A stretch of 64,000 nt of DNA from Candidatus Iainarchaeum sp. (GCA_043808155.1 JAZDFD010000001.1:5501-69500); one strand, 5' to 3'; positions 9,377-40,607 are shown, numbered from the stretch's first letter. Numbers and translations: made by a program. Notes: generated by a model from the letters alone, not told the origin.

Positions 9377-9441
9377 AATATTACCGCACTATCGCACAGC
9401 AATAGTGCACATACAGATCTCCACCAGATCTCTCCGGTGTG
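9377..9441 (+). repeat. Composite two-hairpin repeat, copy 1 (aatattaccg - hairpin - cacatac - palindromic agatctccaccagatct)
   Basis: Flanks are conserved with the copies at 9532, 12434, 22653, 22737, 35257 and 40525. The stem is cactat/atagtg. It abuts the tRNA-Pro(GGG) 3' end. Confidence 0.55.
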
Positions 9442-9516
9442 TGGGAGCGCCCGGATTTGAACCGGGGTCGCAAGACCCCCAGCCTTGAATGCTAGACCAG
9501 ACTACACTACGCCCCC
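9442..9516 (-). tRNA. tRNA-Pro (anticodon GGG)
   Basis: Manual fold of the reverse complement. Acceptor GGGGGCG pairs with CGCTCCC, anticodon stem CAAGG pairs with TCTTG, loop CTGGGGG, T-arm CCCGG-TTCAAAT-CCGGG. Confidence 0.85.
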
Positions 9517-9531
9517 TACAAAAAAATTTGA

Positions 9532-9599
9532 CATATTACTGCAGGTTCGAATGAAATGAGAATCTGCACATATTCGTACCCGCCGGACGTGACGGCGAA
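9532..9599 (+). repeat. Composite two-hairpin repeat, copy 2 (catattactg - hairpin caggttc..gaatctg - cacatat - GC box cccgccggacgtgacggcg)
   Basis: Lies between the two tRNA-Pro genes. The stem mismatch is G-U compatible only on the + strand. Confidence 0.55.
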
Positions 9600-9674
9600 T
9601 GGGACCACCCGGATTTGAACCGGAGTCACAAGCTCCCAAAGCTTGAATGCTAGACCAGACTACACCATGGCCCC
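9600..9674 (-). tRNA. tRNA-Pro (anticodon TGG)
   Basis: Acceptor GGGGCCA pairs with TGGTCCC, anticodon stem CAAGC pairs with GCTTG, loop TTTGGGA, T-arm TCCGG-TTCAAAT-CCGGG, discriminator A. Confidence 0.85.
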
Positions 9675-9735
9675 AAGGCGATATCCTCGAGCTCGCCGAA
9701 CGGCCGGCGAGTGCAGGCACCACTTTCAGTGGCGC
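9675..9735 (-). repeat. tRNA 5' leader module upstream of tRNA-Pro(TGG): GC-rich hairpin box plus hairpin
   Basis: The reverse complement of 9675..9712 equals 4832..4869, the tRNA-Trp leader, over 38/38 nt. It is preceded by hairpin gcgccactgaaagtggtgc. Confidence 0.6.
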
Positions 9736-9912
9736 TAGCTCACTACGTTCGCTAAGGCTTAAACCTTCGACATTAAACTCAAGAATTGCTGAAAAAGATT
9801 TGGTTTGATAAGTATTAAAAATAGAACTTTTAATCCAGTGGAACCAATCCCCTTCTTTTCATGTGAATCAAATTAATTAAGTGAGGAAGAATTTAAATAG
9901 TTTTTCATTGTA

Positions 9913-10530
9913 CTATTTTCTTCTGGATTTTTTGACGGGTTTTCTGAACTTTTTTTCTTCTTTTTGTTTTCTGATCTTTCTAATGAGCGTTTCTTGCAAT
10001 CTGCCAGTTGTGTGAACAAAATTCAAAAGTTTAATACCTCTGTTCTTGAGGTTTATTTTGACTTGTTGATGCTTCAGCTTTAATTCTTCATCAATGACTC
10101 TTAATGTTGTTGGAACACACCACTGTTCAAAACTCCCAAAGCCGATAACTTCAACTTTTTTAGGATTAAAATTATATTTACCTACAACTTTTTTTATGCG
10201 ACCCTGCAAATGAGTTGGAAATGGTTCAGTAAAAACTTCACAATTTTTAACTTTGGCTCTTAAAAGTTTCTCAAACTCATCTTCCATTATGTGTGCTTTG
10301 TTTTTTCTGACGTAAATAAAAAGAGTGTTAGTAGCACTGTGCATTTCTAATGATTTTTTGTAGGCTTCAAAAAATCTCCTGTAGGGGTATTCACTAATTC
10401 TCTTAATTTCTTCAGGAGTTAGTCCTTCATAATACCTGTCAGTGTAATCCTCGGGATTAAATTCTTCGCTCATTAAAAGAAATGGAGGGTGTACAAAAGC
10501 GACTATTTTGTCAATTCTTTCTTTTCCCAT
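9913..10530 (-). CDS. Hypothetical protein with Lys/Arg-rich C-terminal tail
   Basis: ORF only. The basic tail KIRKQKEEKKFRKPVKKSRRK suggests nucleic-acid binding. Confidence 0.35.
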   Translation of the reverse strand: MGKERIDKIVAFVHPPFLLMSEEFNPEDYTDRYYEGLTPEEIKRISEYPYRRFFEAYKKSLEMHSATNTLFIYVRKNKAHIMEDEFEKLLRAKVKNCEVFTEPFPTHLQGRIKKVVGKYNFNPKKVEVIGFGSFEQWCVPTTLRVIDEELKLKHQQVKINLKNRGIKLLNFVHTTGRLQETLIRKIRKQKEEKKFRKPVKKSRRK

Positions 10531-10577
10531 ATATAAACATTGTTTTTTGTCATTAAAATAGCTTTTTATCGTTTTTT

Positions 10578-12428
10578 GTGCTTTTAGTATGCATGCAATT
10601 CAGAAAAGTAGCAGAGTATTTTGAGAAAATTGAGAAAGTTTCTTCGCGTTTGGAGATGACTGATTTAGTGAGTGAATTACTCTCGAAAGCTTCAAAATCA
10701 GATATTGCTAATGTGATTTATTTAAGCCAGGGGAAACTTGGTCCTGATTTTTTAAGTTTGGAACCAGGGCTGGGGGAAAAACTTGTTATTGAAGCAATTA
10801 CTAAATTTTCAGGTTATGAGAAAATTGAAATTGAAAAGAAATTTAAAAAACAGGGTGATCTGGGTTTAGTTGCATTTGAACTTGCGGAAAAGAAAAAACA
10901 GCAGAGTTTATTTTCAGAAGAATTAAGTGTTGAAAAAGTTTTCAGGAATTTTGAGAAGATTGCAAATGCAGAAGGCGCTGGGAGTCAGGAATCTAAAATC
11001 AGATTGCTTTCCGAGCTTTTGAATTCTGGATCTGCATTGGAAGCTAAATTTTTAGTTCGGGTTCCGTTGGGAACATTAAGATTAGGAATTGGTGATCCTA
11101 CATTGATGGATGCACTTGCACTGAATTATATTGATGAATTTAAAACAGGAAATAAAAAAGTAGTTTCTGAAATTGAAAAAGAAGTTAAAATAAAAAAAGA
11201 AAAAGAACGGGCAGAGGAAATTTCAAGAAAAATAAAAATGAAAATCCGTGAAGGAATTGAAGCAAAGTATAATGTAATGCCTGATTTAGGAGAAATTGCA
11301 GAAAATCTGAAAGCAAATGGTTTGGCGGGTTTGAAAAAAATAAAAATTAAAATTGGGGTGCCCATAAGACCAACACTGGCGGAAAGACTGCCTAGTGCAG
11401 ATGAAATTCTTAAAAAAATTGGCAAGTGTGCAGTTGAACACAAATATGACGGATTTAGATTTCAGGTTCACAAGAAAAATAATGAAGTTACAATTTTCTC
11501 ACGGAAGCAGGAAAATATGACACACATGTTTCCAGAAATTGTTGAAGGTGTGAGAAAACAAATTTCTGCAAAGGAAGCAATTATTGAGGGCGAAGCACTT
11601 GCATTTGATGAAGAAAAGAAAAGATATTACCCCTTTCAGGTTACAATTCAGAGAAAAAGAAAATATGATATTGACCAGAAAGCAGTTGAATTGCCACTGG
11701 AACTTTTTGTTTTTGATGTGATGTATGTTGATGGAAAAGAAACCATGAGCAAGAAATTTTCTGAAAGAAGAAAAATACTTGAAAAATTGATTAAGAAAGG
11801 GCCAGTAATAAAACCAACTGAAAGTATTATTTCAGAATCAGTTGGAGAAATTGAAACATTCTTTGAAAATGCGATTGCGAAAGGATTGGAAGGAATAATT
11901 GCGAAGGATTTGAATGCACCTTATATTGCAGGTGCGCGAAAGTATGCATGGATTAAGCTGAAGAAATCATATTCTGACAAAATGACGGATTCAGTTGATG
12001 TTGTTATAATTGGTTATGACAAAGGCAAGGGGCAGAGAACTAAATTTGGTTTGGGAAATTTGCTGACAGCATCATATGATGAGGAAAGCGATATGTTTAA
12101 TTCGGTTGCAAGAATTGGAACAGGAATTACTGAAGAAAGATTAAAAGAATTAGAAGAAATGCTAAGCAAAACTAAGGTTTCTTCAAAACCAGCGCGTGTA
12201 AATTCCGAAATTAAGCCAGATGTGTGGGTTGAACCAAAATATGTTATTGAAGTTATTGCAGATGAAGTTACGCAAAGCCCCCTGCATATGTGTGCGTTTG
12301 ATAAAAAAGAAAAAACAGGTCTCGCACTGAGATTTCCCAGAATGGTTTCATTTAGAGTTGATAAATCACCTGAAGAAGCAACAACGGATTTTGAAATTAT
12401 GAAAATGTACAAACAGCAAACGAAGTAA
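10578..12428 (+). CDS. lig: ATP-dependent DNA ligase
   Basis: Adenylation motif EHKYDGFRFQVHK (KxDG), an OB-fold region and a conserved N-terminal DNA-binding domain. The probable start is M at 10593. Confidence 0.9.
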   Translation: MLLVCMQFRKVAEYFEKIEKVSSRLEMTDLVSELLSKASKSDIANVIYLSQGKLGPDFLSLEPGLGEKLVIEAITKFSGYEKIEIEKKFKKQGDLGLVAFELAEKKKQQSLFSEELSVEKVFRNFEKIANAEGAGSQESKIRLLSELLNSGSALEAKFLVRVPLGTLRLGIGDPTLMDALALNYIDEFKTGNKKVVSEIEKEVKIKKEKERAEEISRKIKMKIREGIEAKYNVMPDLGEIAENLKANGLAGLKKIKIKIGVPIRPTLAERLPSADEILKKIGKCAVEHKYDGFRFQVHKKNNEVTIFSRKQENMTHMFPEIVEGVRKQISAKEAIIEGEALAFDEEKKRYYPFQVTIQRKRKYDIDQKAVELPLELFVFDVMYVDGKETMSKKFSERRKILEKLIKKGPVIKPTESIISESVGEIETFFENAIAKGLEGIIAKDLNAPYIAGARKYAWIKLKKSYSDKMTDSVDVVIIGYDKGKGQRTKFGLGNLLTASYDEESDMFNSVARIGTGITEERLKELEEMLSKTKVSSKPARVNSEIKPDVWVEPKYVIEVIADEVTQSPLHMCAFDKKEKTGLALRFPRMVSFRVDKSPEEATTDFEIMKMYKQQTK

Positions 12429-12433
12429 AAAAT

Positions 12434-12508
12434 AATTATTACCGTGGCATTGAGCAAAACGAAATGCCACACATAAATCGGAGCACCCGTACGAAATCGG
12501 GTAGGTGG
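12434..12508 (+). repeat. Composite two-hairpin repeat, copy 3 (aattattaccg - hairpin tggcatt..aatgcca - cacataa - hairpin cccgtacgaaatcggg)
   Basis: Sits between the lig stop and the alaX start. Same flank and hairpin architecture as the other copies. Confidence 0.5.
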
Positions 12509-12512
12509 TATT

Positions 12513-13220
12513 ATGACTGAGTTATTGTATCTGAGTGATTCTTATCTGAAAAAATTTGAAGCACAAGTTGTTAGTGTAACTGATGGAAAATTTGTGGTTT
12601 TGGATAAATGCGCATTTTATCCGGAAAGCGGAGGGCAACCTTCAGATACGGGTTATCTGGAAAAAGATGGAAATAAAATGAATGTAATTTTTGCAAAGAA
12701 AATGGGTGAGAATATTTCACTTCAGGTTGAAGATTGCAATTTGAAAGAAGGTGACAAGGTAAAGTGTGCAATTGACTGGGATAGAAGATACAGATTTATG
12801 AGAATGCACACTGCAGCACATATTTTGAGTGCAATAATTTTCAAAGAGCTTGGCTGTTTGATTACAGGAAACCAATTAGGAGAAGAAAAAAGCAGAATGG
12901 ATTTTAATGTTGAAGATTTTGACAGAGAGTTATTAATTTCATTTGAAAAAAAAGCAAATGAAATTATAAAAAGAAATTTAGAGGTTGAAGTGTCTTATAT
13001 GTCCGCAGAAGAGGCATTCAAAAATGAACAATTATTCCGGCTTAAGGATGTTCTTCCTAAAAATCTGAAAGAGCTCCGCATTGTAAAAATCGGGGATTTT
13101 GATATTCAGGCTGACGGTGGAACCCATGTGAAGAACACGTCTGAAATTGGGTCTGTTAAAATCACTAAAATTGGAAATAAAGGCACAAACAACAGAAGGA
13201 TTTATTTTATACTGGAATAG
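12513..13220 (+). CDS. alaX: Alanyl-tRNA editing protein AlaX-M (Ser/Gly-tRNA(Ala) deacylase)
   Basis: Zinc-binding editing motifs MHTAAHIL and DGGTHV, as in the AlaRS editing domain. Confidence 0.8.
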   Translation: MTELLYLSDSYLKKFEAQVVSVTDGKFVVLDKCAFYPESGGQPSDTGYLEKDGNKMNVIFAKKMGENISLQVEDCNLKEGDKVKCAIDWDRRYRFMRMHTAAHILSAIIFKELGCLITGNQLGEEKSRMDFNVEDFDRELLISFEKKANEIIKRNLEVEVSYMSAEEAFKNEQLFRLKDVLPKNLKELRIVKIGDFDIQADGGTHVKNTSEIGSVKITKIGNKGTNNRRIYFILE

Positions 13221-13271
13221 TGCTGGTTTTACTCAGCTTAGATTTAAATATTTCATTTGTGTTATTAGAAC

Positions 13272-14756
13272 ATGGATTCAGTGATGAGACTACTTGTTGT
13301 TGCAATTGCTGCTGCTGCTCTTATTGCAGTAATCTATCTGATGTTTGTTGTTCCTGCAGACGACCCAGGACAGCTTATAAAAAAACAGCTTGAAACTGCA
13401 CAGGTTGAGCTTGGTAAAATTCAGCAGATTCAGATACTGGAATATACTGAAAATTATGCTATGCAGGGTGAGCTTTTTGATGACCGTGGAAGGTCAGTTG
13501 CATTTGAATGCAATAATGAAAATCTTTGCTGCATAAAAGGTGAAAAATGCGGAGAAATTGAATGGGATGAAAGATTGATTGCATTCAAGAAAAAGCGGCC
13601 TGTAGAAACAATTTCAAGATGTTTTTTAGAAGAAGGTATTTTTGTTTGCAGAGTTTATTTTGGTAAAGGGCCAGCACAAGTTGAAATTACAGAAGTTGTT
13701 ACAGAAGACACTTTAGATTTGAGTCAGAGAACTGCATTTCCTGTTTCTGTGAAAATTAAAAATTCAGGAAATTCAATTATGACCTATGGTTCAATTGAAA
13801 TGAAACTTTATCAATGGCAGACACAGTTTGAAAACTCAAAACTTATTTTTATTACACAAGAATCACAGCCTCTTACAGTAATGAACCCTGGTAATGAATT
13901 CACAAGAGACTTTACTTTTAATCCAGAAACAAGCGGAGAATATGAAATTCATATAAGAGCAGAGGGGGAAAACGCAGGTTTCTGGGAGAAAACAATTGAA
14001 TTTAATGTGACTGGAATTCCAGCAAGCGACTGCTCAACAATTGATGATGAAGGCGAAATTGTTTGTGATCCGCAAACAAATAAAATAAAGGAAAAATACT
14101 ATTGCGATAAATGCGAGTTTGGATTTGAATGTGAAAAGTTATGGGAAGCCCAAACTGGTTTAACTTTAGAAACGGGTGACAAAAGTTTTACTTATTACTT
14201 AACTAATGATGATTGCCCAGATCCTAATGCAGAACCAGATTTTATTATTCCCAGCGGATCTGCGGGACAGTTAGCGTGGCCTACTCCGGGGATTACGAGA
14301 GTCGGGTCTTGTTTTGGTAATCGTATGCTGTCGGGCAGACCTGACTGGCATGACGGAATTGACATAAGTGCACCTTCAGGAACTCCTGTTTTTACAATGG
14401 CACCAGGCATAGTTTTCAGGATTGGCACAGGTTATAATGCAGGCTTTGGAAATTCAATTGTAATTAAACACAGTGACACGCTTTTCACAGCATATAATCA
14501 TTTGAGAGACGGGGGAATATTAGTTTCACCAGGTGAAACAGTTGTTGCGGGTCAGCAAATTGGAGTAAGCGGAAACACAGGCCTTTCAACAGGAGCGCAC
14601 TTAGACATTAAAGTTTACACTTCAGCGGATAAAGTTTGGCGCGGGGATACGGGGGTTAATCCTTTGTGTTATTTCCCCGCAAGTATCACTTCGGGTCTTG
14701 ATTTGGCTGGAGCCAGCTGTCAGACCCATAGTCCTTATGACGGCTGTAGCTCATAA
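13272..14756 (+). CDS. Membrane-anchored M23 family metallopeptidase (LytM-like)
   Basis: N-terminal TM. C-terminal HDGIDI ... GNTGLSTGAHLD motifs match the M23 HxxxD and HxH zinc sites. Confidence 0.8.
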   Translation: MDSVMRLLVVAIAAAALIAVIYLMFVVPADDPGQLIKKQLETAQVELGKIQQIQILEYTENYAMQGELFDDRGRSVAFECNNENLCCIKGEKCGEIEWDERLIAFKKKRPVETISRCFLEEGIFVCRVYFGKGPAQVEITEVVTEDTLDLSQRTAFPVSVKIKNSGNSIMTYGSIEMKLYQWQTQFENSKLIFITQESQPLTVMNPGNEFTRDFTFNPETSGEYEIHIRAEGENAGFWEKTIEFNVTGIPASDCSTIDDEGEIVCDPQTNKIKEKYYCDKCEFGFECEKLWEAQTGLTLETGDKSFTYYLTNDDCPDPNAEPDFIIPSGSAGQLAWPTPGITRVGSCFGNRMLSGRPDWHDGIDISAPSGTPVFTMAPGIVFRIGTGYNAGFGNSIVIKHSDTLFTAYNHLRDGGILVSPGETVVAGQQIGVSGNTGLSTGAHLDIKVYTSADKVWRGDTGVNPLCYFPASITSGLDLAGASCQTHSPYDGCSS

Positions 14757-14792
14757 GCAGGCATGTTTTAAATATAAATCAAAATATAGTAT

Positions 14793-16139
14793 ATGGGATT
14801 GAAAATGAGCAATGAAAAATTCATGAAAAAACACGCTCTCAAAACAGGGGACATTATTGAAATTAAAACAAAAAATCAGATTCATGAGGGGACGGTTATT
14901 CCCTCAAAAGAAAGTGACTTTATTACTCTGAAACTTAAAAGCGGGTATAATATTTCTGTGAAAATGTCAGATATTTCAAATGTTAAAAAAACAGGTTCAC
15001 AGAAAGTTGGTAAAGGAGAAGCTGTGAAAGTTCAGCAGGATAAATCTCTTCCCAAGATAAGTATTCTTCACACTGGGGGCACAATTGCTGGGCGCGTGGA
15101 TTATAAAACAGGTGCAATACTTTCTGCATTTGAACCTGAAGATTTATTAGGAATGTTTCCTGAGCTTGCAAAAATTGGTTTTTTCCAAACTAAATTAGTT
15201 GGTAATATTCTTTCAGGAAATTTACGATTTAAAAATATTTCAAAAATTGCAAAAGCAGTTGAGAATGAAATTAAAACCCAGAAAAATATTAAGGGAATTA
15301 TAGTTTCACATGGGACAGACACACTAGGATATAGTGCAGCTGCTTTGAGTTTTATGCTTGAAAATTTAAACATTCCTGTAATTTTTGCTGCTGCACAAAG
15401 GTCAAGTGATAGAGGGAGTTCAGATGCAGCAATGAATTTAATTTGTGCTGCAAAGTTTATTGCAGATTCTGAGTTCAAAGGCGTCGGGATTTGCATGCAC
15501 AAAGGAATTTCAGATGACGAATGTTTAATTTTGCCTGCAACTAAATCAAGGAAATTGCACACCTCAAGAAGAGATGCATTCAAAGCAGTTAATTCACTTC
15601 CAATTGCGAGCGTGAATTATAAAGAAAAGAAAATTAAAATTATTGATAAAAATTCATTTGTGAAATTACAGGGCAAGTTTGCAGTTAAATCAAAAATGGA
15701 AGAAAAAGTTGGGATTTTGAAATCGCATCCTAATTTGATGCCGGAACAGATTGATTTTTTCAGAAAAAATAAATACAAGGGACTTGTTATTGAAGGAACC
15801 GGCATGGGTCATATTCCTGTTGGCGGGGATGGAAAAGAAAATGAACTTAATAAAAAAAATCTTGAAGCAGTTAAAAAACTCGTGAACTCAGGATGTGTTG
15901 TTGTTATGACATCACAATGTATTTTCGGAAGAATTAATATGCATGTGTATAGTTATGGTGTTGATTTAATGGGTGCAGGTGTGATTTCTGGTCATGACAT
16001 GTTACCTGAAACTGCATTTGTAAAACTTTCATGGTTGCTGGGGAATTATTCTGTGAAAAAAGTACCTGAATTGATGGAAGACAATTTGAGAAATGAATTA
16101 ATTGAAAGAACACAGGAAAATGAATTTGATTTGGAGTGA
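14793..16139 (+). CDS. gatD: Glutamyl-tRNA(Gln) amidotransferase subunit D
   Basis: Asparaginase-like motif ILHTGGTIAG and an archaeal GatD N-terminal domain. Confidence 0.85.
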   Translation: MGLKMSNEKFMKKHALKTGDIIEIKTKNQIHEGTVIPSKESDFITLKLKSGYNISVKMSDISNVKKTGSQKVGKGEAVKVQQDKSLPKISILHTGGTIAGRVDYKTGAILSAFEPEDLLGMFPELAKIGFFQTKLVGNILSGNLRFKNISKIAKAVENEIKTQKNIKGIIVSHGTDTLGYSAAALSFMLENLNIPVIFAAAQRSSDRGSSDAAMNLICAAKFIADSEFKGVGICMHKGISDDECLILPATKSRKLHTSRRDAFKAVNSLPIASVNYKEKKIKIIDKNSFVKLQGKFAVKSKMEEKVGILKSHPNLMPEQIDFFRKNKYKGLVIEGTGMGHIPVGGDGKENELNKKNLEAVKKLVNSGCVVVMTSQCIFGRINMHVYSYGVDLMGAGVISGHDMLPETAFVKLSWLLGNYSVKKVPELMEDNLRNELIERTQENEFDLE

Positions 16140-16512: not shown

Positions 16513-16558
16513 TTTTGAACCAAAACATTTAAATGGGACAAATGTCCCAATATAAACT

Positions 16559-21259: not shown

Positions 21260-21265
21260 ATAAAA

Positions 21266-22652: not shown

Positions 22653-22715
22653 AATATTACTGTCTTATCGGAGATAGGACACATATGCTCACGCAAGGGA
22701 CTCCGTCCCTTTGCA
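22653..22715 (+). repeat. Composite two-hairpin repeat, copy 4a (aatattactg - hairpin tcttatc..gatagga - cacatatg - GC hairpin gcaagggac..gtccctttgc)
   Basis: Same architecture as the other copies. The stem mismatch is a U-G pair on the + strand. Confidence 0.5.
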
Positions 22716-22736: not shown

Positions 22737-22804
22737 AATATTACTGCGGGGTTGAAAACCCCGCATATATGTTCACAATCGGAACGCCGATTAGCCCCGA
22801 GGAG
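22737..22804 (+). repeat. Composite two-hairpin repeat, copy 4b (aatattactg - hairpin cggggttgaaaaccccg - catatatg - hairpin atcggaacgccgat), ending in a 13-nt fragment of the tRNA-Gln 3' end (tagccccgaggag)
   Basis: The 13-nt tail at 22792..22804 is identical to 22871..22883 inside tRNA-Gln. The hairpin is near-identical to one inside the tRNA-Arg intron. Confidence 0.55.
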
Positions 22805-22870
22805 TTCCACACATAGGGGCAACTACGTTTCCCCCTATTACCCCCTTCCTTTAATTATTAATAAAAAAGA

Positions 22871-22943
22871 TAGCCCCGAGGAGATTCGAACTCCTGTCAC
22901 CGGGTCCAAAGCCCAGCATCCTTGGCCACTAGACTACGGGGCT
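22871..22943 (-). tRNA. tRNA-Gln (anticodon TTG)
   Basis: Acceptor AGCCCCG pairs with CGGGGCT, anticodon stem CTGGG pairs with CCCGG, loop CTTTGGA, T-arm AGGAG-TTCGAAT-CTCCT. Confidence 0.85.
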
Positions 22944-22969: not shown

Positions 22970-24181
22970 TTAGATTACGTATTTAAAGCTTTCTGGACTG
23001 AAAATATTGAACTTAGTTTTGTATTTTTTGATTTTGTTTAAGTTATGTTTTTGAGGGAGGGTAGCGCAGTTGGTAGCGCACGCGACTGATAATCGCGCGG
23101 TCATGGGTTCGAATCCCATTCTTCCCACTATTTTACGTAGAAGTTCATTTTTCTCCACACCGCAGTATTTTTTGCTCTTTTTTGAAATTTTCACACCATC
23201 AACAAAACCACCTAATTTCCAAAAATTTCTTATTGACTTTGAATCATAAATTCTAACACCACAAGCACCTGACCACGAACTTTTGCGCTTTCCAATTTTT
23301 CCATTGAGTCCATATTTCTTAAAAATAGTCTGCCATTGTTTGCACAAATTTGCATTATAGCATCCTAAATTCAATTCTGACTTCTTAGTTTTTGGATAGC
23401 TAATGCAACCATCAGTTGTAAAAGCAAAGCGAATGCACCAACTAAGTGTCTTCTCATCACATTTGTTTAGAAAATCTAGAGTTGGTTGTGGTTCATTTAA
23501 ATATTCGTTAACAGTTTGTCGATGTGCAGGAGATGTTTTGTAATTTGGGCTTAGTTTAAACAATTTCCGAGATAGAGTTGCATCTGTAAGTTTCAGATTA
23601 AACACTCCTTTTTTAGATTTATTAATTGCAGGCACATATCTACTAAGTCTAAGTAAAAGGCTGTTCATAAAATCCCTCAATATCGGATCTTTTGTAGAAT
23701 AAGCTATTCTATTTCTATCCCCACATGCTGAAAGAGAACCATCTGTCATCAGACAAGTTGCAAGAATGCACATTAGATTAACACAATCTTTTTCAAGCAA
23801 AGTTAGTAACTTATTATCAATTTTAATATTAAAGTCACTTTGAAGATTCTTTCTGCTTATGTGCGTTCTTATATATTTAGTATATTCATAAATATTTTCT
23901 ATTTGAGCTATTCTTGCTGAACCGCCTTTTCTTGCACTCCAATTCATAGGTAATTTCTTCCCAATATAGTTCTCAAATTCTTTCAATTCGGGTTGTAAAA
24001 TACATATTTTCTGAAAAACTGAAAAAGTCATGTTGCATTTTTCTTTTAACCAGTCTTTTAATGTCCATCTGCCGAGTTCTAACAATTCCGAGAGTTCTCT
24101 TTGTGGAAGATTTTGTTTCTTGTAAAAAGCCAATAAAAATTCTCGCTGTTTTCCTTTTTTAAATTTCAGCCTAAAGTTCAT
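22970..24181 (-). CDS. Free-standing double-motif LAGLIDADG-family homing endonuclease-like protein; the 3' end of the ORF reads through the antisense of tRNA-Ile
   Basis: Two LAGLIDADG-like motifs ILATCLMTDGSL and IRFAFTTDGCIS lie about 109 aa apart, each with Asp before Gly. An N-terminal HTH-like region is present. The last ~50 codons are the antisense of tRNA-Ile at 23055..23127, so the true C-terminus is uncertain. Confidence 0.5.
   Translation of the reverse strand: MNFRLKFKKGKQREFLLAFYKKQNLPQRELSELLELGRWTLKDWLKEKCNMTFSVFQKICILQPELKEFENYIGKKLPMNWSARKGGSARIAQIENIYEYTKYIRTHISRKNLQSDFNIKIDNKLLTLLEKDCVNLMCILATCLMTDGSLSACGDRNRIAYSTKDPILRDFMNSLLLRLSRYVPAINKSKKGVFNLKLTDATLSRKLFKLSPNYKTSPAHRQTVNEYLNEPQPTLDFLNKCDEKTLSWCIRFAFTTDGCISYPKTKKSELNLGCYNANLCKQWQTIFKKYGLNGKIGKRKSSWSGACGVRIYDSKSIRNFWKLGGFVDGVKISKKSKKYCGVEKNELLRKIVGRMGFEPMTARLSVACATNCATLPQKHNLNKIKKYKTKFNIFSPESFKYVI
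23055..23127 (+). tRNA. tRNA-Ile (anticodon GAT)
   Basis: Acceptor GGGAGGG pairs with TCTTCCC, D-arm GCGC-AGTTGGTA-GCGC, anticodon stem CGCGA pairs with TCGCG, loop CTGATAA, T-arm ATGGG-TTCGAAT-CCCAT. Confidence 0.85.
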
Positions 24182-31017: not shown

Positions 31018-31140
31018 CTAAACCACTAAAAAAATTAAAGCATTAATAATAAAACATTCAGAAATAAAAACCCAACGTCAGGAATATAAAGAACCTTGTG
31101 TTAATATTAGTGAAATCCTGGGAAGAGGCTTTGATTCCAA

Positions 31141-32259: not shown

Positions 32260-32279
32260 ATTACACAAAGTTCTAATTA

Positions 32280-33785: not shown

Positions 33786-33788
33786 ATA

Positions 33789-34235: not shown

Positions 34236-34387
34236 CCCCTGGGGATATTCACACACAGGGGACTCCATTCGCGATAATCCAACCAAACTTTACGAGAATA
34301 GTGAGATCACAACAACTTATCTGATGAGTAAAATAAACAAGTCTGCAAAGGAAATCCTTATATATCATTTGTATACCTATTTGATGT

Positions 34388-34654: not shown

Positions 34655-35077
34655 TTCTTCAGGAAGAAAAGATTTTGTAATGTGATTGAGTTTCTCAAAA
34701 TGCTTATCTCTAGAAACGACAATTGCACCATAATCTCTTGCAAGTACTGCGCACAAAGAATCTGTTTTAGGAATGTTGAATTTCTTGGAAATTTTCCTAG
34801 CTTCTTCAACTTGCGTATCAGAAGAATCAATAAATTCAATTTTCTTCGCATTCAGCAATTCTTTAAACACGGTATTTTGCAGATGTGATTCATTACAATT
34901 CAATATGTTTTTAATTTCAAAAACAACGTCCTTTGGAATAATCAGAAAATATTTACAACTTACTGCGTTATTGAAAAACTGAAATGCGAATTCGCCAAGC
35001 GGTTTAATTGAATCTTTTCTATCAAAATAATAATCAAGAAAAATATTTGAATCCACAAAGACTCTCTCAGCAACCAT
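34649..35077 (-). CDS. PIN-domain (VapC-like) nuclease
   Basis: VFVDSNIFLDY at the N-terminus and AIVVSRDKHF near the C-terminus give the PIN acidic tetrad pattern. The gene is convergent with, and overlaps by 6 nt, the RHH gene. Confidence 0.65.
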   Translation of the reverse strand: MVAERVFVDSNIFLDYYFDRKDSIKPLGEFAFQFFNNAVSCKYFLIIPKDVVFEIKNILNCNESHLQNTVFKELLNAKKIEFIDSSDTQVEEARKISKKFNIPKTDSLCAVLARDYGAIVVSRDKHFEKLNHITKSFLPEEL

Positions 35078-35144
35078 AAAAAAATATTTGTTTTTACATT
35101 TAAAAATAGATTAGCAAGAGCTCATTTCCGGTGAACTTAAAAAA

Positions 35145-35216
35145 AGCCCCTGGGGAGATTCGAACTCCCGATCCCTTGTTTACGAAACAAGTGCTTTACC
35201 ACTAAGCCACAGAGGC
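35145..35216 (-). tRNA. tRNA-Thr (anticodon CGT)
   Basis: Acceptor GCCTCTG pairs with CAGGGGC, D-arm GCTT..AAGC, anticodon stem CTTGT pairs with ACAAG, loop TTCGTAA, T-arm GGGAG-TTCGAAT-CTCCC. Confidence 0.8.
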
Positions 35217-35256
35217 GCGCTTGATGACGATAATATCTTTGTCAATAAAAATAATT

Positions 35257-35325
35257 ATATATTACCGTGGGATTGAACAAAGTGAAATCCCACATATATT
35301 CGCACTCGCCGGGCGCGACGGCGAA
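35257..35325 (+). repeat. Composite two-hairpin repeat, copy 5 (atatattaccg - hairpin tgggatt..aatccca - catatat - GC box cactcgccgggcgcgacggcg)
   Basis: About 40 nt from the tRNA-Thr 5' end and abutting the glyS stop. Same architecture as the other copies. Confidence 0.55.
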
Positions 35326-36825
35326 TTAAAGCGTTTTGTATTCTGCTTTTCCAATTTTTAATTTCCAGAGAGTTTCAGGGAGTTCCTGAATTTTGATTCT
35401 TTTCTGTTCCATTGAGTCACGCTCACGTAAGGTAACAGTTCCTTTCTCTAAAGTATCATAATCTAAAGTAATTGCATAGGGAGTTCCAATTTCATCAGCA
35501 CGCGCGTATCTTTTGCCTATGCTCCCTTTGTCATCGAAGAAAGCATCAAACTCAAAGTCAGAGAGTTCTTTGTAAAGGCTTTCTGCTTTTTCTTTTAACC
35601 CGTCTTTTTTCACTAATGGGAAAACAGCAACAAAGAAAGGTGCAACTCTTGCAGGGAGTTTCAAATATGTTCTTTCTTCAGGTCCTCGCTTTTCTTTTCT
35701 GAAGCCATGGTCTAAAACAACATATAATGTTCTGTCAATTCCTGCTGAAAGTTCAAAAACATGCGGGATGAATTTTTTTCCGTCTTCATTTACTGAAAGA
35801 TCTTTTTTGCTTTCTTTTGAATGGGATTTTAAATCATAATCTGTTCTGTAATTGCATGCCATTAATTCAATCCAACCCAAATCAGTTTCAACTTCAAAAT
35901 CCCAGGTTTCTTTTGCATAAAATGCTCTTGCTTCTTTTGCCAGTTCTCTGAAACGCATTGCTTTTACTGGGATGCCATATTTTTCAAACAACTGCTGAAC
36001 CCTTGTAATATAATAAGCAACTAATTTTCCTGAAACAATTTTTTTAGAAACTGCGTCTTTGCAGGAGATTGGATTCATTTTTTTCCCGATAAGCATTAAA
36101 TTGATTTTGTAATTTTCAACGTCATCAAAATTTTCAACTTCATTTATTTTATCAGGATTGAAGAAAATCTCTGCTTCGAATTGTCCGATTTCACGTTCTC
36201 TGATTAAACTCTGCCTTGGAGATATTTCATTTCTGAATGAAGTTCCTGCCTGTGCAATCCCAAAAGGCAAATTCAGGCGCATTGTTTTGTAAAGTCTGCT
36301 AAAATCCAAAAAAATACTCTGGCAGGTTTCAGGTCTCAAATAACATGGGTTTTGTCCTGTTGCACCAATTTCAGTTTTCATCATCATATTGAAGCGTTTG
36401 ACTTTTCCTAATACGCCTTTGCATTTTGTACATTTGATATTGTTCTTTTCAATAAGTTCTGTGAACTTTTCATCAGCCATGCTTTCAGGGAGCGATTCTT
36501 TTGTTTTTTCTTCAATCAGTTTATCTGCTCTGAAGTGTGAATGGCATTTTAAGCACTGAACAATAGGGTCATCGAAATTCTCTAAATGACCCGAAGCTTT
36601 GAAAACTGCTTCAGGCATAATCTGAGCTCCGTAAATTTCAAGCATATTTTCTTTCTGCACTAATTCTTTTCTCCAGAGTTCAATTATTTTTCGTCTCAGA
36701 GATTCTCCTACTGGTCCGAAGTCCCAAAAACCAGAAGGTGCATTTGGATAAATGTCTGCTGACGGATAGAAAATTGATCTCCTCAAAGCTAAATTTACGA
36801 TTTCTTCTTGTGGCATTGTTCTCAC
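35326..36825 (-). CDS. glyS: Glycyl-tRNA synthetase (archaeal/eukaryotic dimeric type)
   Basis: N-terminal RRSIFYPSADIYPNAPSGFWDFGPVG, class II motifs and a C-terminal anticodon-binding domain. Confidence 0.9.
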   Translation of the reverse strand: MRTMPQEEIVNLALRRSIFYPSADIYPNAPSGFWDFGPVGESLRRKIIELWRKELVQKENMLEIYGAQIMPEAVFKASGHLENFDDPIVQCLKCHSHFRADKLIEEKTKESLPESMADEKFTELIEKNNIKCTKCKGVLGKVKRFNMMMKTEIGATGQNPCYLRPETCQSIFLDFSRLYKTMRLNLPFGIAQAGTSFRNEISPRQSLIREREIGQFEAEIFFNPDKINEVENFDDVENYKINLMLIGKKMNPISCKDAVSKKIVSGKLVAYYITRVQQLFEKYGIPVKAMRFRELAKEARAFYAKETWDFEVETDLGWIELMACNYRTDYDLKSHSKESKKDLSVNEDGKKFIPHVFELSAGIDRTLYVVLDHGFRKEKRGPEERTYLKLPARVAPFFVAVFPLVKKDGLKEKAESLYKELSDFEFDAFFDDKGSIGKRYARADEIGTPYAITLDYDTLEKGTVTLRERDSMEQKRIKIQELPETLWKLKIGKAEYKTL

Positions 36826-37408
36826 TTCTAAATATCAACTCAAAAAGAATTTATAAATATGTTTATGCCAAATTTTTTTCAAAAAAATACTTTTAAATAC
36901 TAGTTAGGACTTTCTTTAAATTAAGATATAGTAGAGTGCAATGATGGCTTGCATAGTTTAGCATTTCTGATTATGTCAAAAACTAGGGGGGTTTGACCCA
37001 TGGTGAAGAAAAAACCTGCTGCAAAAAAAGTAAAGAAGAAAGCAGTAAAGAAAAAGAAGAAATAAGCATGTATGATTATACATTTGATAATAGGGGCATT
37101 TTTGCCTCTCTCTTATTTTTTTGAAATCAGGAAATTATTCAAATAATCTGTTTTTAAATATTAGTGTTTTTCGAGGACAGGGGTTCATTTTTATGCTTTT
37201 TGACACGCGAGTATCTTGCTCAAAAATATATGTTTTGGGGGGACTTGAAATGAAATGCTTTTTAGAAAATGATCTCTACATGTCGGATGATGATGAAGAA
37301 TACAGCGATGAAGAAGATTATTAAGATGCAGATGAATGATTGCTCTGAAAATCTTTGCCCTATTTCTTTTTTTATTTTTTATTATTTTAGCAGTTTATTG
37401 TTTGCGGG

Positions 37409-37948
37409 TTAGGCATTCTTTAAATAGACGACTAAATTCCTTGTCAGAGTTTTAACTGAAGAAACATGTCGGGACATTTCTTTGTTTAATTGTGGGTCCA
37501 AAAATGGACTTATAATTAAAATTGAAAATGAAACTGAAACTATGTGCAGTAAAGTGAATGGAATCTGCATTATCAAAGTCACAATAAATGGCTGATTAAA
37601 CATAAATGAACTCATTATCGGGCCAGTTATAAAATCAAATATTAATACTGCAACTGCTCCCGAGCCAAGAAATAATTTCATAGTAGATTCTTTGTTTTTA
37701 AGGAAAAAATGGAAAAGCATTATTACTGCAGAATATGTGAGGCTTGTTACCAACGTCCACAACCCCAAATGACCTGTAATTATATCAAAAGAAAACATTA
37801 CTGCAAACGCAAACAACGCACCTTTCCACCATGGTTCGTTTTTTGCAGCAGGAAGTGCAAATCCCATTATCGGATCTGAATTAGGGAAAATTCTGAAAAA
37901 TCTGTAAAAATTTGTTAAAATCGCACCAAATAAATATTTGAATTTCAT
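37409..37948 (-). CDS. Hypothetical integral membrane protein (possible small-molecule transporter S-component-like)
   Basis: Five or six TM helices in 179 aa. Confidence 0.35.
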   Translation of the reverse strand: MKFKYLFGAILTNFYRFFRIFPNSDPIMGFALPAAKNEPWWKGALFAFAVMFSFDIITGHLGLWTLVTSLTYSAVIMLFHFFLKNKESTMKLFLGSGAVAVLIFDFITGPIMSSFMFNQPFIVTLIMQIPFTLLHIVSVSFSILIISPFLDPQLNKEMSRHVSSVKTLTRNLVVYLKNA

Positions 37949-38006
37949 TTAATCACACCACATATATATCTGAAAAGACTTTATAAAAGTGTCTTTAATA
38001 TAATAT

Positions 38007-39038
38007 ATGGATATTATGCCAACAACAAACTTGGAAAGACTCCGAAAACAGCTTATTTCTAAGGCTAAAAAACAGATATCGGAAAAGTATTCAGGAGATG
38101 ACATTCACATAATCAGAGCAGTGAATGTTCTTGAAGACCTTGATTTTATTTTTAATTTACTGAGTGAACATGCACGTGAATGGTATTCAGTGCATTTCCC
38201 TGAACTTAATTCACTTGTGAAAGATAATGAAACCTATCTGAAAATGATAAATGATTTGGGAACACGAGAAAATTTTACAGAATCAAAAATTGAACAGTAT
38301 GCAAAAGAAAAAAATATTTCAAAAATTGCAGAAAAAGCAAAATCCGGAATGGGTTCTGAAATCGGAGAAAAAGAAATGGGAGAAATTAATTCATTAGTGA
38401 AAAATGCACTTTCTCTGAAAAAGGAAAGAAATGCACTTTCTGCATTTATCGAAAAAGAGACTGCTACTTTAATGCCGAACTTTTCAGAACTTGCAGGTCC
38501 GATTTTAAGTGCAAAACTTCTTAATGAAGCAGGAAGTTTCAAAAAACTTGCAATGATGCCAAGTTCCACAATGCAATTATTGGGAGCGGAGAAAGCACTT
38601 TTCAGACATATTAAATCAGGTGCACGCCCTCCAAAATACGGACACTTATTTCAGCATCCTCTTGTAAAACAAATGACACCCTGGCAGAAGGGTGCTACTG
38701 CAAGAACTATTGCAGGAAAATTAAGTATGGCAATTAAGGAAGATTATTTTGGAGATAAGAAAATTGCAGAGGATTTGAAAAAAGATCTTGAAGTAAGACT
38801 TAAGGAAATTTCAGAAACTCACAAGAAAAAAGAACCAAAAGAAGGCTCCAGAACAGATTCACAAACATATTCAAAGCCAAGAAGCTATTCAGATAACTCA
38901 GGACCCCGACCATATTCAAAACCAAAACAATATTCAAAACCAAGAACATATTCAAATAAATCAGGTGCTAAACCATTCAAAACTCAGGGAAATAAATTTC
39001 GTAAACCATTCAAAAAGAAAAATACATTCGGAGCATAG
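38007..39038 (+). CDS. Nop5/Nop56/58 box C/D snoRNP protein with unusual low-complexity C-terminal tail
   Basis: NOP domain GAEKALFRHIKSGARPPKYGHLFQHP. The C-terminal tail has repeated YSKP(R/K)xYS units. Confidence 0.85.
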   Translation: MDIMPTTNLERLRKQLISKAKKQISEKYSGDDIHIIRAVNVLEDLDFIFNLLSEHAREWYSVHFPELNSLVKDNETYLKMINDLGTRENFTESKIEQYAKEKNISKIAEKAKSGMGSEIGEKEMGEINSLVKNALSLKKERNALSAFIEKETATLMPNFSELAGPILSAKLLNEAGSFKKLAMMPSSTMQLLGAEKALFRHIKSGARPPKYGHLFQHPLVKQMTPWQKGATARTIAGKLSMAIKEDYFGDKKIAEDLKKDLEVRLKEISETHKKKEPKEGSRTDSQTYSKPRSYSDNSGPRPYSKPKQYSKPRTYSNKSGAKPFKTQGNKFRKPFKKKNTFGA

Positions 39039-39046
39039 GTGTTTTT

Positions 39047-39709
39047 TTGAAGGAGATTTTCCCTGGAATTTATCTTATCAATGGGAAGTTGGCTACTTTA
39101 AACTCAGTTCCCGGAAATAAAGTTTATGGTGAACAGTTAGTTTCAGTTAAAGATCAGGAATTTCGTATTTGGGACCCCTACAGATCAAAATTAGCAGCTG
39201 CGATTAAAAAAAATCTAAAAACTGTCCCTTTGAAAAAAGATTTCAAAGTTTTATATTTGGGGAGTGCAGAAGGTACAACTGTTTCTCATGTTGCTGAGAG
39301 TGTTGGTGATAAAGGGCTGGTTTTTGGTGTTGAGTTTAGTGAAAGAACTATGAGGAAATTTATTGACATCTGTGAATCGCGTTCAAATATAATTCCGATT
39401 TTAGCAGATGCTAACAAACCAGACTCATATTCGGAATATTTAGAAGGTCAGGGCATTGATTTGCTTTATCAGGATATTGCACAGAAAAATCAGGCAGAAA
39501 TTTTCAATAAAAATGCAAAAATGTTTCTGAAAAAAGGCTCTTTTGGAATGATTGCAATCAAAGCGCGTTCCATAAGCCAGAAAAAAAATATAAAAGAAAT
39601 ATTTGACACAGAGATTGCTGAAATTGAAAAAGAATTTAAAATAATTGAAAGTGTTCCTTTAGCTCCATTTGAGAAAGAACATTTATTTGTTGTTTGCCAA
39701 AAAAAGTAA
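39047..39709 (+). CDS. flpA: Fibrillarin-like rRNA/tRNA 2'-O-methyltransferase
   Basis: VLYLGSAEGTTVSHVAE SAM motif. Adjacent to Nop5, as in most archaea. Confidence 0.9.
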   Translation: MKEIFPGIYLINGKLATLNSVPGNKVYGEQLVSVKDQEFRIWDPYRSKLAAAIKKNLKTVPLKKDFKVLYLGSAEGTTVSHVAESVGDKGLVFGVEFSERTMRKFIDICESRSNIIPILADANKPDSYSEYLEGQGIDLLYQDIAQKNQAEIFNKNAKMFLKKGSFGMIAIKARSISQKKNIKEIFDTEIAEIEKEFKIIESVPLAPFEKEHLFVVCQKK

Positions 39710-39731
39710 GATTTTTAAATTAGTGATTATA

Positions 39732-40298
39732 ATGATTTCAGAAGTTAGAAGAAAATTTATTCACATTGGAATTGGCTCTGTCTTTGTACTGATGGTTTTC
39801 TTTTTAGGAACTATTAATTCATTAATGATTTTATTTCCAATTTATATTATTGGTCTAATTAGTTCATTTTTGATTTTAAAGGGAGTTAGAATTCCATTTG
39901 CTCATGCCTTACTTGATGATGTGCAAAGAACAGATGAAAAGCATCTCCCGGGAAAAGGAGCGCTTTATTTTTTCCTTGGTGCAAATTTAGTTTTAGCTTT
40001 ATTTTGGTGGAATCAGTTATTTGTTTTAGCAGCTCTTTGTACTGTTGTTTTCGGAGATGGTTTTGCAACAATGGTTGGAATTAAGTTTGGTAAACACACA
40101 TTAATTAGCGGAAAAAGTGTTGAAGGAACTCTTGCATGCATTATTGCGTGTGTAATTTTTCTTCATGTTTTATTTCCGTTCAGTATTTACAGAATTGGAT
40201 TTACTGCATTTGTTGCAACTGCAGTTGAACTTCTTCCATTAAATGACAATTTAGGGATGCCATTAGCAACAGCAGCAACATTATTATTGTTAATTTAA
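39732..40298 (+). CDS. CTP-transferase-family membrane protein (CDP-archaeol synthase / dolichol kinase-like)
   Basis: Multi-TM protein with EVRRKFIHIGIG near the N-terminus. The start was taken at M 39732 rather than the ORF-track 39669, which overlaps flpA. Confidence 0.45.
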   Translation: MISEVRRKFIHIGIGSVFVLMVFFLGTINSLMILFPIYIIGLISSFLILKGVRIPFAHALLDDVQRTDEKHLPGKGALYFFLGANLVLALFWWNQLFVLAALCTVVFGDGFATMVGIKFGKHTLISGKSVEGTLACIIACVIFLHVLFPFSIYRIGFTAFVATAVELLPLNDNLGMPLATAATLLLLI

Positions 40299-40317
40299 GA
40301 TAAAGTATGTGATGTCA

Positions 40318-40360
40318 GTGCCACTTTAGTGGCACCCGTACTAGCCGGACGTGACGGCGT
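40318..40360 (+). repeat. tRNA 5' leader module upstream of tRNA-Arg: hairpin gtgccactttagtggcac plus GC box ccgtactagccggacgtgacggcgtg
   Basis: Directly abuts the tRNA-Arg 5' end. An orphan near-identical copy lies at 40763..40804. Confidence 0.55.
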
Positions 40361-40501
40361 GGGCCTGTGGCGCAACGGATAGCGCAGCTGCCTCCTAACG
40401 GACAGATCCGTTAACGATCTGTATGTGCGGGGTTTTCAACCCCGCGATAATAATACGTGGGAGCGAGCAGAAGGTTGAGAGTTCGATTCTCTCCGGGCCC
40501 G
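40361..40501 (+). tRNA. tRNA-Arg (anticodon CCT) with ~68-nt intron at 37/38 (about 40398..40465)
   Basis: Acceptor GGGCCTG pairs with CGGGCCC, D-arm GCGC-AACGGATA-GCGC, anticodon stem GCTGC pairs with GCAGA, loop CTCCTA(A), T-arm GAGAG-TTCGATT-CTCTC. Intron 3' GGAG pairs with loop CTCC in a BHB-like arrangement. The intron contains hairpin gcggggttttcaaccccgc. Confidence 0.8.
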
Positions 40502-40524
40502 ATATTCATTTTTTGTAATTTTAG

Positions 40525-40607
40525 AAATATTACTGCACTGTTGTGCAAAACAATAGTGCACATATCGCACTAGCCGGGCGTTCGGCTTTCGATTCTCTCC
40601 GGGCCCG
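40525..40607 (+). repeat. Composite two-hairpin repeat, copy 6 (aaatattactg - hairpin cactgttg..caatagtg - cacatat - GC box ctagccgggcgttcggc) fused to a 20-nt duplicate of the tRNA-Arg 3' end
   Basis: 40588..40607 (ttcgattctctccgggcccg) is identical to 40482..40501. It is followed by palindromic gcctttttaaaaaaaggc. Confidence 0.6.

Follow-up and report, generated by a model that had tools for sequence, protein, structure and literature searches.

We describe a family of short two-hairpin modules in a 64,000-nucleotide (nt) stretch of Candidatus Iainarchaeum sp. DNA (GCA_043808155.1 JAZDFD010000001.1:5501-69500; this whole stretch is called the window below). The modules keep their stems paired while the stem sequences change, lie with one defined end against transfer RNA (tRNA) genes or exons, are present or absent at orthologous tRNA genes of close relatives, and in one gene constitute almost the whole intron. 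Our tentative interpretation, which we rate at somewhat less than an even chance, is a non-autonomous modular insertion element that spreads or recombines among sites and settles at the base or in the loop of a tRNA stem. The window is archaeal, with a GC content of 34.8%, and its prolyl-tRNA synthetase (ProRS) and fibrillarin match proteins of an NCBI metagenome-assembled genome labelled Candidatus Diapherotrites archaeon at 100% identity. Based on tRNA calls by Rfam and intron-aware ARAGORN, at least one unit is found at six of the seven tRNA genes of the window. Two of these seven genes, both intron-bearing, were missed by default tRNA finders.

Anatomy of the Units

The family shares one plan, 55-90 nt long: a 5' box is followed by the variable hairpin hp1, then by a spacer and the linker GYACYN, and the GC hairpin hp2 comes last. 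The 5' box is either ATATTAYYG or a mini-hairpin of the form GC-GA-NN-loop-NN-GA-GC (boxU), the spacer in this lineage is CACATAT, and the commonest hp2, GCCGG-RCGTGA-CGGC, does not vary among genomes (about 30 metagenomic contigs). Class A units consist of an A/T-rich flank, box 1 (ATATTAYYG), an hp1 of 7-10 base pairs (bp), box 2 (CAYATAY), a short linker, and hp2. Class B is a box-less variant with hp1, linker, and hp2, often preceded by boxU and sometimes ending in a tail hairpin, AGCTCRAGGAT..CCTT, that pairs with the tRNA nucleotide G+1. Five class B modules occur in the window: three are 5' flanks, of tRNA-Trp, tRNA-Pro(UGG), and tRNA-Arg, one occupies the 3' end of the tRNA-Trp intron, and the fifth, at 40763, is an orphan (Table 1). 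The tetranucleotide TTAY lies 2 nt 5' of hp1 in every class A unit; it is found neither in class B nor in the left flank of the intron insertion. Box 1 (TAATATTAC) presumably resembles the Rep nonanucleotide of CRESS viruses, and GCGAAGC a stable DNA mini-hairpin; we treat both likenesses as leads only.

A reading of the window from its sequence alone had proposed a stand-alone family of six copies confined to the + strand. Seven + strand units with the architecture it described lie at the places it gave, and its picture of a structured family with conserved single-stranded boxes, covarying stems, and a tie to tRNA genes is borne out. These units, however, are one sub-type of a lineage-wide modular repeat with presence/absence polymorphism, and the restriction to the + strand is contradicted by a complete - strand unit (40402-40454) inside a tRNA intron. 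The form GCCGG-N-CGGC, ascribed to hp2 in general, is seen in three of the seven units, the remaining ones carrying AGATCT..AGATCT, ACCCG..CGGGT, AAGGGAC..GTCCCTT, or ATCGG..CCGAT. Overlooked were the intron-bearing tRNA-Trp and tRNA-Arg genes and the box-less class B modules. By our own count, 12 units of the window are on the + strand and two on the - strand.

The family is real and far beyond chance, as three sets of results demonstrate. A descriptor in which boxes 1 and 2 enclose a closing stem of at least 6 bp matches eight units in the window; in 1.2 Mb of other loci from DPANN archaea it yields five weak matches and one genuine relative (locus L084; loci from other contigs are denoted by such numbers), and in 0.5 Mb of GC-rich DNA it has no match. 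In 120 viral contigs that match both boxes at the right spacing, the intervening stems are 1-5 bp long and none reaches 6 bp. The folding of all units against dinucleotide shuffles gives z = -2.2 to -4.8.

The units of the window are mosaics; they share only sub-blocks of 11-37 nt, and their hp1 stems differ. Unit 9377 has the hp1 3' arm and box 2 in common with unit 40526, and box 2 and the hp2 5' arm in common with the intronic unit 40402-40454, whose entire hp1 is in turn common to unit 22737. Unit 9532 and the tRNA-Arg leader have the core in common, and 37 nt are identical between the 9676-9752 module and the tRNA-Trp leader.

Covariation and the Folding Strand

A covariance model could not be built, because varying stem and loop lengths let MAFFT register only four hp1 pairs. 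Its place was taken by descriptor searches, a scan with the exact core (linker plus hp2, GYACYNGCCGGRCGTGACGGC), and a count of pairs anchored at the stem ends. Descriptors with a single anchor gave uninformative noise when run across the relatives. In 39 distinct hp1 hairpins, oriented by the core, 273 of 273 outer-stem positions are paired, with 3-6 pair types per position. When the 3' arms are permuted, 55% of positions are paired, and 0 of 2000 permutations reach the observed pairing. The near-identical loci L152 and L173 keep the flank and the core; in hp1, two pairs have changed in a compensatory manner and the loop has an indel.

The same 39 hairpins contain, on the unit's own strand, 10 G.T pairs vs. 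0-1 A.C mismatches, copies antisense to the host tRNA included; this excess is suggestive and no proof, because hairpin extraction accepted G.T but rejected A.C. The minimum free energy (MFE) is better on the unit strand in five units, on the opposite strand in two, and on neither in four. Taken together, these comparisons suggest that the unit's own strand is the one that folds; folding as RNA and folding as DNA both fit. The sequence-only reading had concluded from G-U wobbles present only on the + strand that the motif is a transcribed RNA rather than a DNA repeat. The three pairs that it cited do exist, but unit 9377 has a C.A mismatch on the + strand, which is a G.U on the minus strand. 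The argument fails because the asymmetry in the window is not uniform, a single-stranded DNA intermediate would fit equally well, and units lie in either orientation to host transcription. Many units are without a same-strand promoter or terminator.

Association with tRNA Genes and Introns

The metagenome scan with the core returned at least 120 loci. Among the matches listed, about 31 are genuine and lie in 33 low-GC contigs (33-53% GC); an hp1-like hairpin stands upstream of each core, and often the GA mini-hairpin as well. The GC-rich matches lie inside bacterial genes and were dismissed as chance. No genuine viral contig with the core was found, the three viral matches being GC-rich chance hits. 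One carrier contig with 45% GC also belongs to Diapherotrites by protein similarity. The family was found only in Diapherotrites/Iainarchaeota (DPANN) archaea. Its units match no Rfam family at E<=5, no modules were found beside other stable RNAs, and the core is absent from indexed papers.

The position of the units follows a rule for one end, that of hp2. In sense units, the hp2 end lies 0-2 nt before the tRNA 5' end (L129, L140, L152, L084, L087, and the window tRNA-Arg); in antisense units, it lies 1-3 nt after the tRNA 3' end (L117, L123, L134, L157, L187, L084, L161, and window unit 9532). Within introns, antisense units abut exon 1 (L090 and L158, also L161 and the window tRNA-Arg), and sense units lie about 10 nt before exon 2 (L161, L206); the unit of the window tRNA-Trp also faces exon 2. 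The 5' end of a unit abuts a tRNA in no case, and the other genuine units among the matches listed are intergenic. The earlier statement that units abut tRNA genes or fragments applies to units 9377 and 9532 (antisense tRNA-Pro 3' ends), 22737 (a 13-nt tRNA-Gln fragment), and 40526 (a 20-nt sense tRNA-Arg 3' fragment), but not to 35259, which lies about 40 nt from tRNA-Thr; 12435-12502 is the sole unit away from any tRNA. A GC hairpin flush with the tRNA 5' end is not a general feature of DPANN archaea, being seen at only 3 of 88 tRNAs.

Class B modules occur in introns of tRNA-Trp, tRNA-Pro, and tRNA-Gly (window, L158, L206) and of tRNA-Arg(UCU) in L090, and antisense class A units in the introns of the window tRNA-Arg(CCU) and of tRNA-Arg(UCU) in L161. 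In the latter gene, the 136-nt intron consists of two units, first class A in antisense and then class B in sense; this back-to-back arrangement is repeated in the 3' flank, and the class A units carry yet other stems. Tandem units are found in L120, L123, L172, L187, and L207.

Several further observations concern these genes. Long tRNA introns (65-355 nt) are common among the module-bearing contigs; in L207, tRNA-Gln(CUG) (3180-3629) was called with a 355-nt intron. The tRNA-Arg(UCU) gene of L161 (571-782) was labelled tRNA-Ala(GGC) with an intron at 36 by ARAGORN, although the loop CTTCTAC and the stems indicate tRNA-Arg(UCU), and the window tRNA-Trp(CCA) was missed by default ARAGORN and by Rfam at the gathering threshold. 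Module-filled introns appear to mislead tRNA finders. The minus strand of L172 (~830-1040) carries a tandem array of identical 69-nt units of hp1 and core.

Presence and Absence in Relatives

The relatives compared are L081/L082 (ProRS 87% identical to that of the window), L085 (fibrillarin 89% identical), and L084 and L086 from one Logan sample (identity 79% and 72%); the outgroup contig is L083 plus L087 (ProRS 76% and fibrillarin 63% identical). At several sites occupied in the window, the outgroup has no unit. Its two tRNA-Pro genes use a plain TATA promoter and are separated by a 19-nt spacer, and 20 nt separate the threonyl-tRNA synthetase (ThrRS) gene from tRNA-Thr, where the unit is also missing from L086. 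The tRNA-Trp gene of the outgroup has a TATA box in its 5' flank and no class B module; its intron is 103 nt long and, by alignment, lacks a module-bearing block of about 60 nt. The outgroup tRNA-Arg(CCU) (L087) is intronless, whereas the window gene has a 68-nt intron that is essentially one class A unit.

Within the closer relatives the units also differ. Unit 9377 is missing from L081 and L083. At the site of unit 9532, the class A unit of L084 differs from that of the window: its hp1 arms are unrelated, and its hp2 is compensated (GGCG/CGCC vs. GCCG/CGGC). In L081, only hp1 and hp2 are present. Upstream of tRNA-Pro(GGG), the window has nothing, L084 has a core, and L081 has a hairpin plus tail, the same module that stands at 4737-4789 in the window. 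Upstream of tRNA-Arg, L086 has box 1 and hp1 in the sense orientation, and L085 has the tail in addition. The outgroup carries GCACCA-GCCGGgcgtgaCGGC-T 1 nt upstream of tRNA-Arg, so the core is old at this site. Overall, the closer relatives show a rapid turnover of units.

Features of the Window

Table 1. Modules of the family and intron-bearing tRNA genes in the window, by position from its first nucleotide.
Position	Strand	Feature	Remarks
4737..4789	+	Orphan leader-type module	hairpin ACCCAT..ATGGGT and tail TATAGCTCAAGGATATCGCCTT; no tRNA follows
4790..4869	+	Class B module, tRNA-Trp 5' flank	boxU GGCGAGCTAAAGCGAGC, hp1 GTGTCAGTgcaACTGACAC, linker, hp2 CTCGCCGgccgttCGGCGAG, tail hairpin AGCTCGAGGATATCGCCTT
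4870..5111	+	tRNA-Trp(CCA), 169-nt intron	old C/D-box guide plus inserted block in intron
5023..5065	+	Class B module	hp1, GAATTCGCAC, hp2 GCGGaatttgCCGC; in tRNA-Trp intron, faces exon 2
5124..5170	+	Degenerate class A unit	downstream of tRNA-Trp
9377..9431	+	Class A unit	box 1, hp1, CACATAC, AGATCT hairpin; between ProRS start and antisense tRNA-Pro(GGG) 3' end
9532..9597	+	Class A unit	canonical core GTACCCGCCGGACGTGACGGC; 2-3 nt from antisense tRNA-Pro(TGG) 3' end
9676..9752	-	Class B module with tail	tRNA-Pro(TGG) 5' flank
12435..12502	+	Class A unit	between DNA ligase stop and AlaX ribosome-binding site
22653..22711	+	Class A unit	first of tandem pair
22737..22791	+	Class A unit	abuts 13-nt antisense tRNA-Gln 3'-end copy (22792-22804)
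22810..22842	+	Swapped-box unit	CACATA-GGGG..CCCC-TATTACC; between two tRNA-Gln 3' repeats; by inspection
35259..35323	+	Class A unit	near-canonical core; antisense, between ThrRS-like stop and tRNA-Thr promoter
40318..40359	+	Class B module	hp1 GTGCCACtttaGTGGCAC, ccgtacta, canonical core; ends 1-2 nt before tRNA-Arg(CCU)
40361..40501	+	tRNA-Arg(CCU), 68-nt intron	intron 40399-40466
40402..40454	-	Class A unit, complete	almost whole tRNA-Arg intron; hp2 end faces exon 1
40526..40587	+	Class A unit	between 20-nt direct repeats of tRNA-Arg 3' end
40763..40805	+	Orphan class B module	canonical core; no tRNA follows

The tRNA-Arg(CCU) intron is placed at 38/39 by ARAGORN and Rfam, and by inspection the anticodon-loop CTCC pairs with GGAG at the intron 3' end. 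The 20-nt direct repeats of the tRNA-Arg 3' end lie at 40482-40501 and 40588-40607; the gene's own copy of the 13-nt tRNA-Gln repeat is at 22871-22883. The 5' part of the tRNA-Trp intron is kept in L083 and has C/D-like boxes; an 8-nt guide in it (TAACAGGT) could pair with its complement ACCUGUUA at the junction of the exons, resembling the known methylation-guide introns of archaeal tRNA-Trp. The 19-nt leader tail AGCTCRAGGAT..CCTT is found at 4851-4869, 9676-9694 (-), and 4771-4789, and also in L081, L082, L084, and L085; the 3' arm of its hairpin takes in the tRNA nucleotide G+1, and it covaries (CAAGG/CCTTG vs. CAAAA/TTTTG in L082).

Two stretches contain further hairpins. After the tRNA-Arg fragment, positions 40610-40760 (+) are non-coding and hairpin-rich, with GCCTTTTTAAAAAAAGGC, GCACACTGAAACcaaaGTTTCAGTTGTGC, and GGCAAATCCtttGGGATTTGC, then ACATCTAT and a T-run; they may represent more degenerate units or a small RNA. 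At 34236-34270 (+), the hairpin CCCCTGgggatattcacacaCAGGGG, with the box-like ATATTCACACA in its loop, stands immediately 3' of an open reading frame (ORF) stop.

Aminoacyl-tRNA synthetase genes lie beside their cognate tRNAs, ProRS with two tRNA-Pro genes (7898-9675) and the ThrRS-like gene with tRNA-Thr (35145-36825), and this adjacency is also kept in the outgroup (L083, L087). A 403-amino-acid ORF at 22970-24181 (-) has a LAGLIDADG domain (residues 250-320) and runs across tRNA-Ile (23055-23128, +) on the opposite strand; either its C-terminal tail may be spurious, or the tRNA-Gln/tRNA-Ile pair may have the remnant of a homing endonuclease next to it. The spacer upstream of tRNA-Pro(UGG) contains, at 9834-9844 (+), a single exact motif resembling an origin recognition box (TCCAGTGGAAC then CAATCCCC), kept at the syntenic spot in L081 and L083 and not repeated in the window; at up to two mismatches, the window has 17 matches vs. 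12 expected, and no Orc1/Cdc6 gene is nearby.

Origin of the Units

Orthologous-site polymorphism, rapid turnover, the position rule with either orientation, tandem and mosaic units, repeats of tRNA 3' ends, folding on the unit's own strand, and the lack of a matching Rfam family or paper all argue for insertion; a small mobile element, one of the options listed in the sequence-only reading, is thus favored by the comparative data. The mobility that we infer behind the polymorphism would involve a single-stranded intermediate, in which a unit folds on its own strand and its hp2 end is placed against a tRNA stem arm. One recognition rule may be sufficient, because the acceptor-stem dyad relates the two tRNA ends and the anticodon-stem dyad relates the two sides of the loop. 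With such dyad symmetry, units should be sense at 5' ends and antisense at 3' ends, and introns should hold either orientation, as observed. RNase P, tRNase Z, and the splicing endonuclease trim the 5' leader, the 3' trailer, and the intron, respectively. Units in these positions would persist because they would be removed by the same enzymes and hence tolerated in a compact genome, and landing in the anticodon loop would create a working intron or enlarge an existing one.

Several facts speak against insertion. No autonomous element with such ends was found, and a Pfam scan of about 50 ORFs of the window, all housekeeping genes, revealed no transposase, integrase, or HUH enzyme. There is no target-site duplication at the intron insertion. 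Copies within a genome are not near-identical, unlike recent bursts of miniature inverted-repeat transposable elements (MITEs). The window, L085, and the outgroup L087 all keep the core ahead of tRNA-Arg(CCU) at orthologous positions, which fits a cis function. Sense copies have a canonical TATA box upstream of the module (L152/L173), so the module is probably part of a transcribed leader and might function as RNA. Finally, compensatory changes in hp1, even between near-identical loci, together with an invariant 21-nt core in genomes of 33-53% GC are a signature of purifying selection on a functional structure.

The last three of these facts also provide much of the case for the main rival, a functional RNA module, which we consider possible but rather unlikely. 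Transcripts of the units would use the invariant core loop and the GA motifs to bind a conserved protein or RNA. Sense copies would then be structured leaders or intron segments, in which RNase P or the splicing endonuclease, cutting directly 3' of hp2, would release a stable small RNA with a GC hairpin at its end, or which would tune tRNA maturation, and antisense and orphan copies would be small-RNA genes of their own, with the A/T-rich flank and box 1 as promoter. Tandem G.A motifs with covarying inner pairs in boxU and type-I hp1, T-runs soon after several orphan copies, the prevalence of G.T over A.C on the own strand, and an own-strand z that is more negative in 11 of 11 units are consistent with such a role. 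However, the z difference is partly a matter of base composition and the MFE preference is mixed, while template-switch correction of quasi-palindromes could produce paired changes that mimic compensation without selection on RNA. The genomic context is also unfavorable: of the copies associated with a tRNA, about half run antisense to it, orthologous tRNAs can do without a unit, and 9377, 9532, and 35259 have no same-strand gene or clear terminator. Box 1 as a TATA box would put the start inside hp1, and the distance from box 1 to box 2 is 19-27 nt.

It is improbable that the units are DNA-level cis elements, that is, promoter-proximal, terminator, or protein-binding sites around tRNA transcription units, for instance with TATA-like boxes 1 and 2 and with hp2 between TATA and the start site. 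Some placements are suggestive: box 1 overlaps the likely ProRS TATA on the opposite strand, where L081 has ATAATTAAAAA without a hairpin; box 2 of several copies in the window precedes the next unit by about 26 nt; an AT-rich box in L087 lies 10 nt ahead of the core, at a distance of 28 nt from tRNA-Arg +1; and T-runs lie beside box 1 on the opposite strand in four units. On the other hand, promoters of this genome are of the form TTTAAATA, about 21 nt from start codons, and genomes of higher GC lack an AT-rich box in or after the module. For these reasons, along with the variable spacing and a start inside hp1, we regard boxes 1 and 2 as promoters as no more than a minor possibility. Moreover, stems covary rather than hold a fixed half-site, units occur inside introns, and GC hairpins are rare at the tRNA 5' ends of DPANN archaea. 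Least probable, and in our view very doubtful, are eroded att remnants (<100 bp) of viruses or plasmids integrating in tRNA genes. Repeats of tRNA 3' ends, 20 and 13 nt long, do flank units at two loci, and there is a precedent (Sugahara et al., 2012; PMC3293823). Yet such repeats are absent at the other units, the window has no integrase, and units are also found at 5' ends, in anticodon-loop introns, and away from tRNAs. The viral contigs described above likewise gave neither a genuine core nor, in 120 box matches, a stem of at least 6 bp, and a conserved covarying structure is unexpected in decaying scars.

A more specific form of the insertion hypothesis, which we regard as conceivable rather than probable, is that the units constitute an undescribed class of strand-specific hairpin element that recognizes tRNA stem arms, inserts at exon boundaries and in anticodon loops, and actively generates introns and long leaders in Diapherotrites. 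It could be mobilized by an HUH-like single-strand DNA enzyme or by the tRNA-processing machinery, with the invariant core as the recognition site. How archaeal tRNA genes gain introns, fragments, and split architectures is an old question, with mostly indirect evidence. Here one module takes several forms: an entire new intron, an insertion in an older C/D-box intron, a 5' leader, and a 3' trailer. Its exon-facing geometry is the same in many uncultured Diapherotrites genomes. The 21-nt core is a searchable marker for dating intron gains and seeking the responsible enzyme, and makes it possible to test whether, in the tiny genomes of DPANN archaea, processing enzymes turn tRNA loci into havens for selfish DNA. 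If the units are instead a functional RNA, they represent a new RNA motif across the lineage.

Comparison with Known Systems

The sequence-only reading had set the motif apart from C/D and H/ACA RNAs and from CRISPR, and our analysis agrees: the units match none of these, nor any other Rfam family. They have no RUGAUGA/CUGA boxes of C/D box small RNAs, the sole C/D-like element being the older part of the tRNA-Trp intron. The CACAUA after hp1 contains the ACA of H/ACA RNAs, but the 7-10 bp of hp1 form a plain stem that lacks a pocket. Units are dispersed, unlike a CRISPR array, and the one tandem array (L172) repeats the whole unit including hp1. An integron attC site was rejected because boxes 1 and 2 are complementary in ATAT only. 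By inspection, type-I hp1 has tandem G.A pairs, but neither a 3-nt bulge nor a CUGA segment, and a K-turn/K-loop or hammerhead core was rejected.

Split tRNAs of Nanoarchaeum equitans and Caldivirga have leaders and trailers with GC-rich sequence abutting exon ends, and leader-like sequence in introns, as the units do. However, the hairpins of the units are self-complementary, their modules form no bulge-helix-bulge, and the tRNA genes are intact. A leader-trailer processing stem or trans-splicing adaptor was likewise rejected, as no tRNA or exon pair has matched complementary modules. The only pairing of this kind is in the fold of pre-tRNA-Pro(TGG), where the leader core pairs with the trailer core, without bulge-helix-bulge geometry.

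Among mobile elements, the units resemble the MITEs of IS200/IS605 (palindrome-associated transposable elements, PATEs) and the repetitive extragenic palindromic (REP) sequences and bacterial interspersed mosaic elements (BIMEs): they are short, intergenic, multi-copy, strand-specific imperfect palindromes with a motif 5' of the hairpin. As in IS200/IS605, no target is duplicated and one strand of the window is preferred, and the two hairpins could correspond to left and right ends. The sub-terminal hairpins on one strand typical of such MITEs have a counterpart in the two hairpins per unit and the excess of G.T over A.C. Box 1 of class A contains TTAC, which we take to be the target of IS608. 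By contrast, near-identical copies within a genome, another trait of these MITEs, are not seen, no TnpA, TnpB, or RAYT was found in the window, stems differ, and the core is conserved across genera. The target would be a tRNA exon boundary rather than a tetranucleotide, and class B is without TTAC. REP/BIME sequences were also rejected because the flank is ATATTAYYG or a GA mini-hairpin, not of the GTAG type, and there is no HUH gene in the window. Since several defining features of HUH-type elements are thus lacking, the units are no demonstrated member of a named family.

Two archaeal systems link inserted DNA with tRNA introns. In Caldiarchaeum, a 1.9-kb recombinase-bearing insertion led to intron gain and tRNA fragments (Sugahara et al., 2012; PMC3293823). 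As with that element, inserted DNA is accompanied by tRNA ends in direct repeat, by tRNA fragments, and by the gain of an intron, but the units are shorter than 100 nt, non-coding, structurally conserved, and mostly without flanking tRNA repeats. In our comparison, the nearest precedent is the transposition of tRNA introns in Thermoproteales, in which, according to the summary of Fujishima et al. (2010) in PMC4033280, similar sequences occur in introns of different tRNAs; this implies that introns were gained as a sequence spread. Similarly, the units recur in introns of tRNA-Arg(CCU), tRNA-Arg(UCU), tRNA-Trp, tRNA-Pro, and tRNA-Gly, and an intronless ortholog exists. Unlike the Thermoproteales introns, they belong to Diapherotrites, occur also in 5' and 3' flanks and in intergenic DNA in both orientations, and have a two-hairpin anatomy, an invariant core, and an exon-facing rule. 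By these likenesses, the units seem to work as a repeat that colonizes tRNA loci and generates introns, outside any demonstrated named family.

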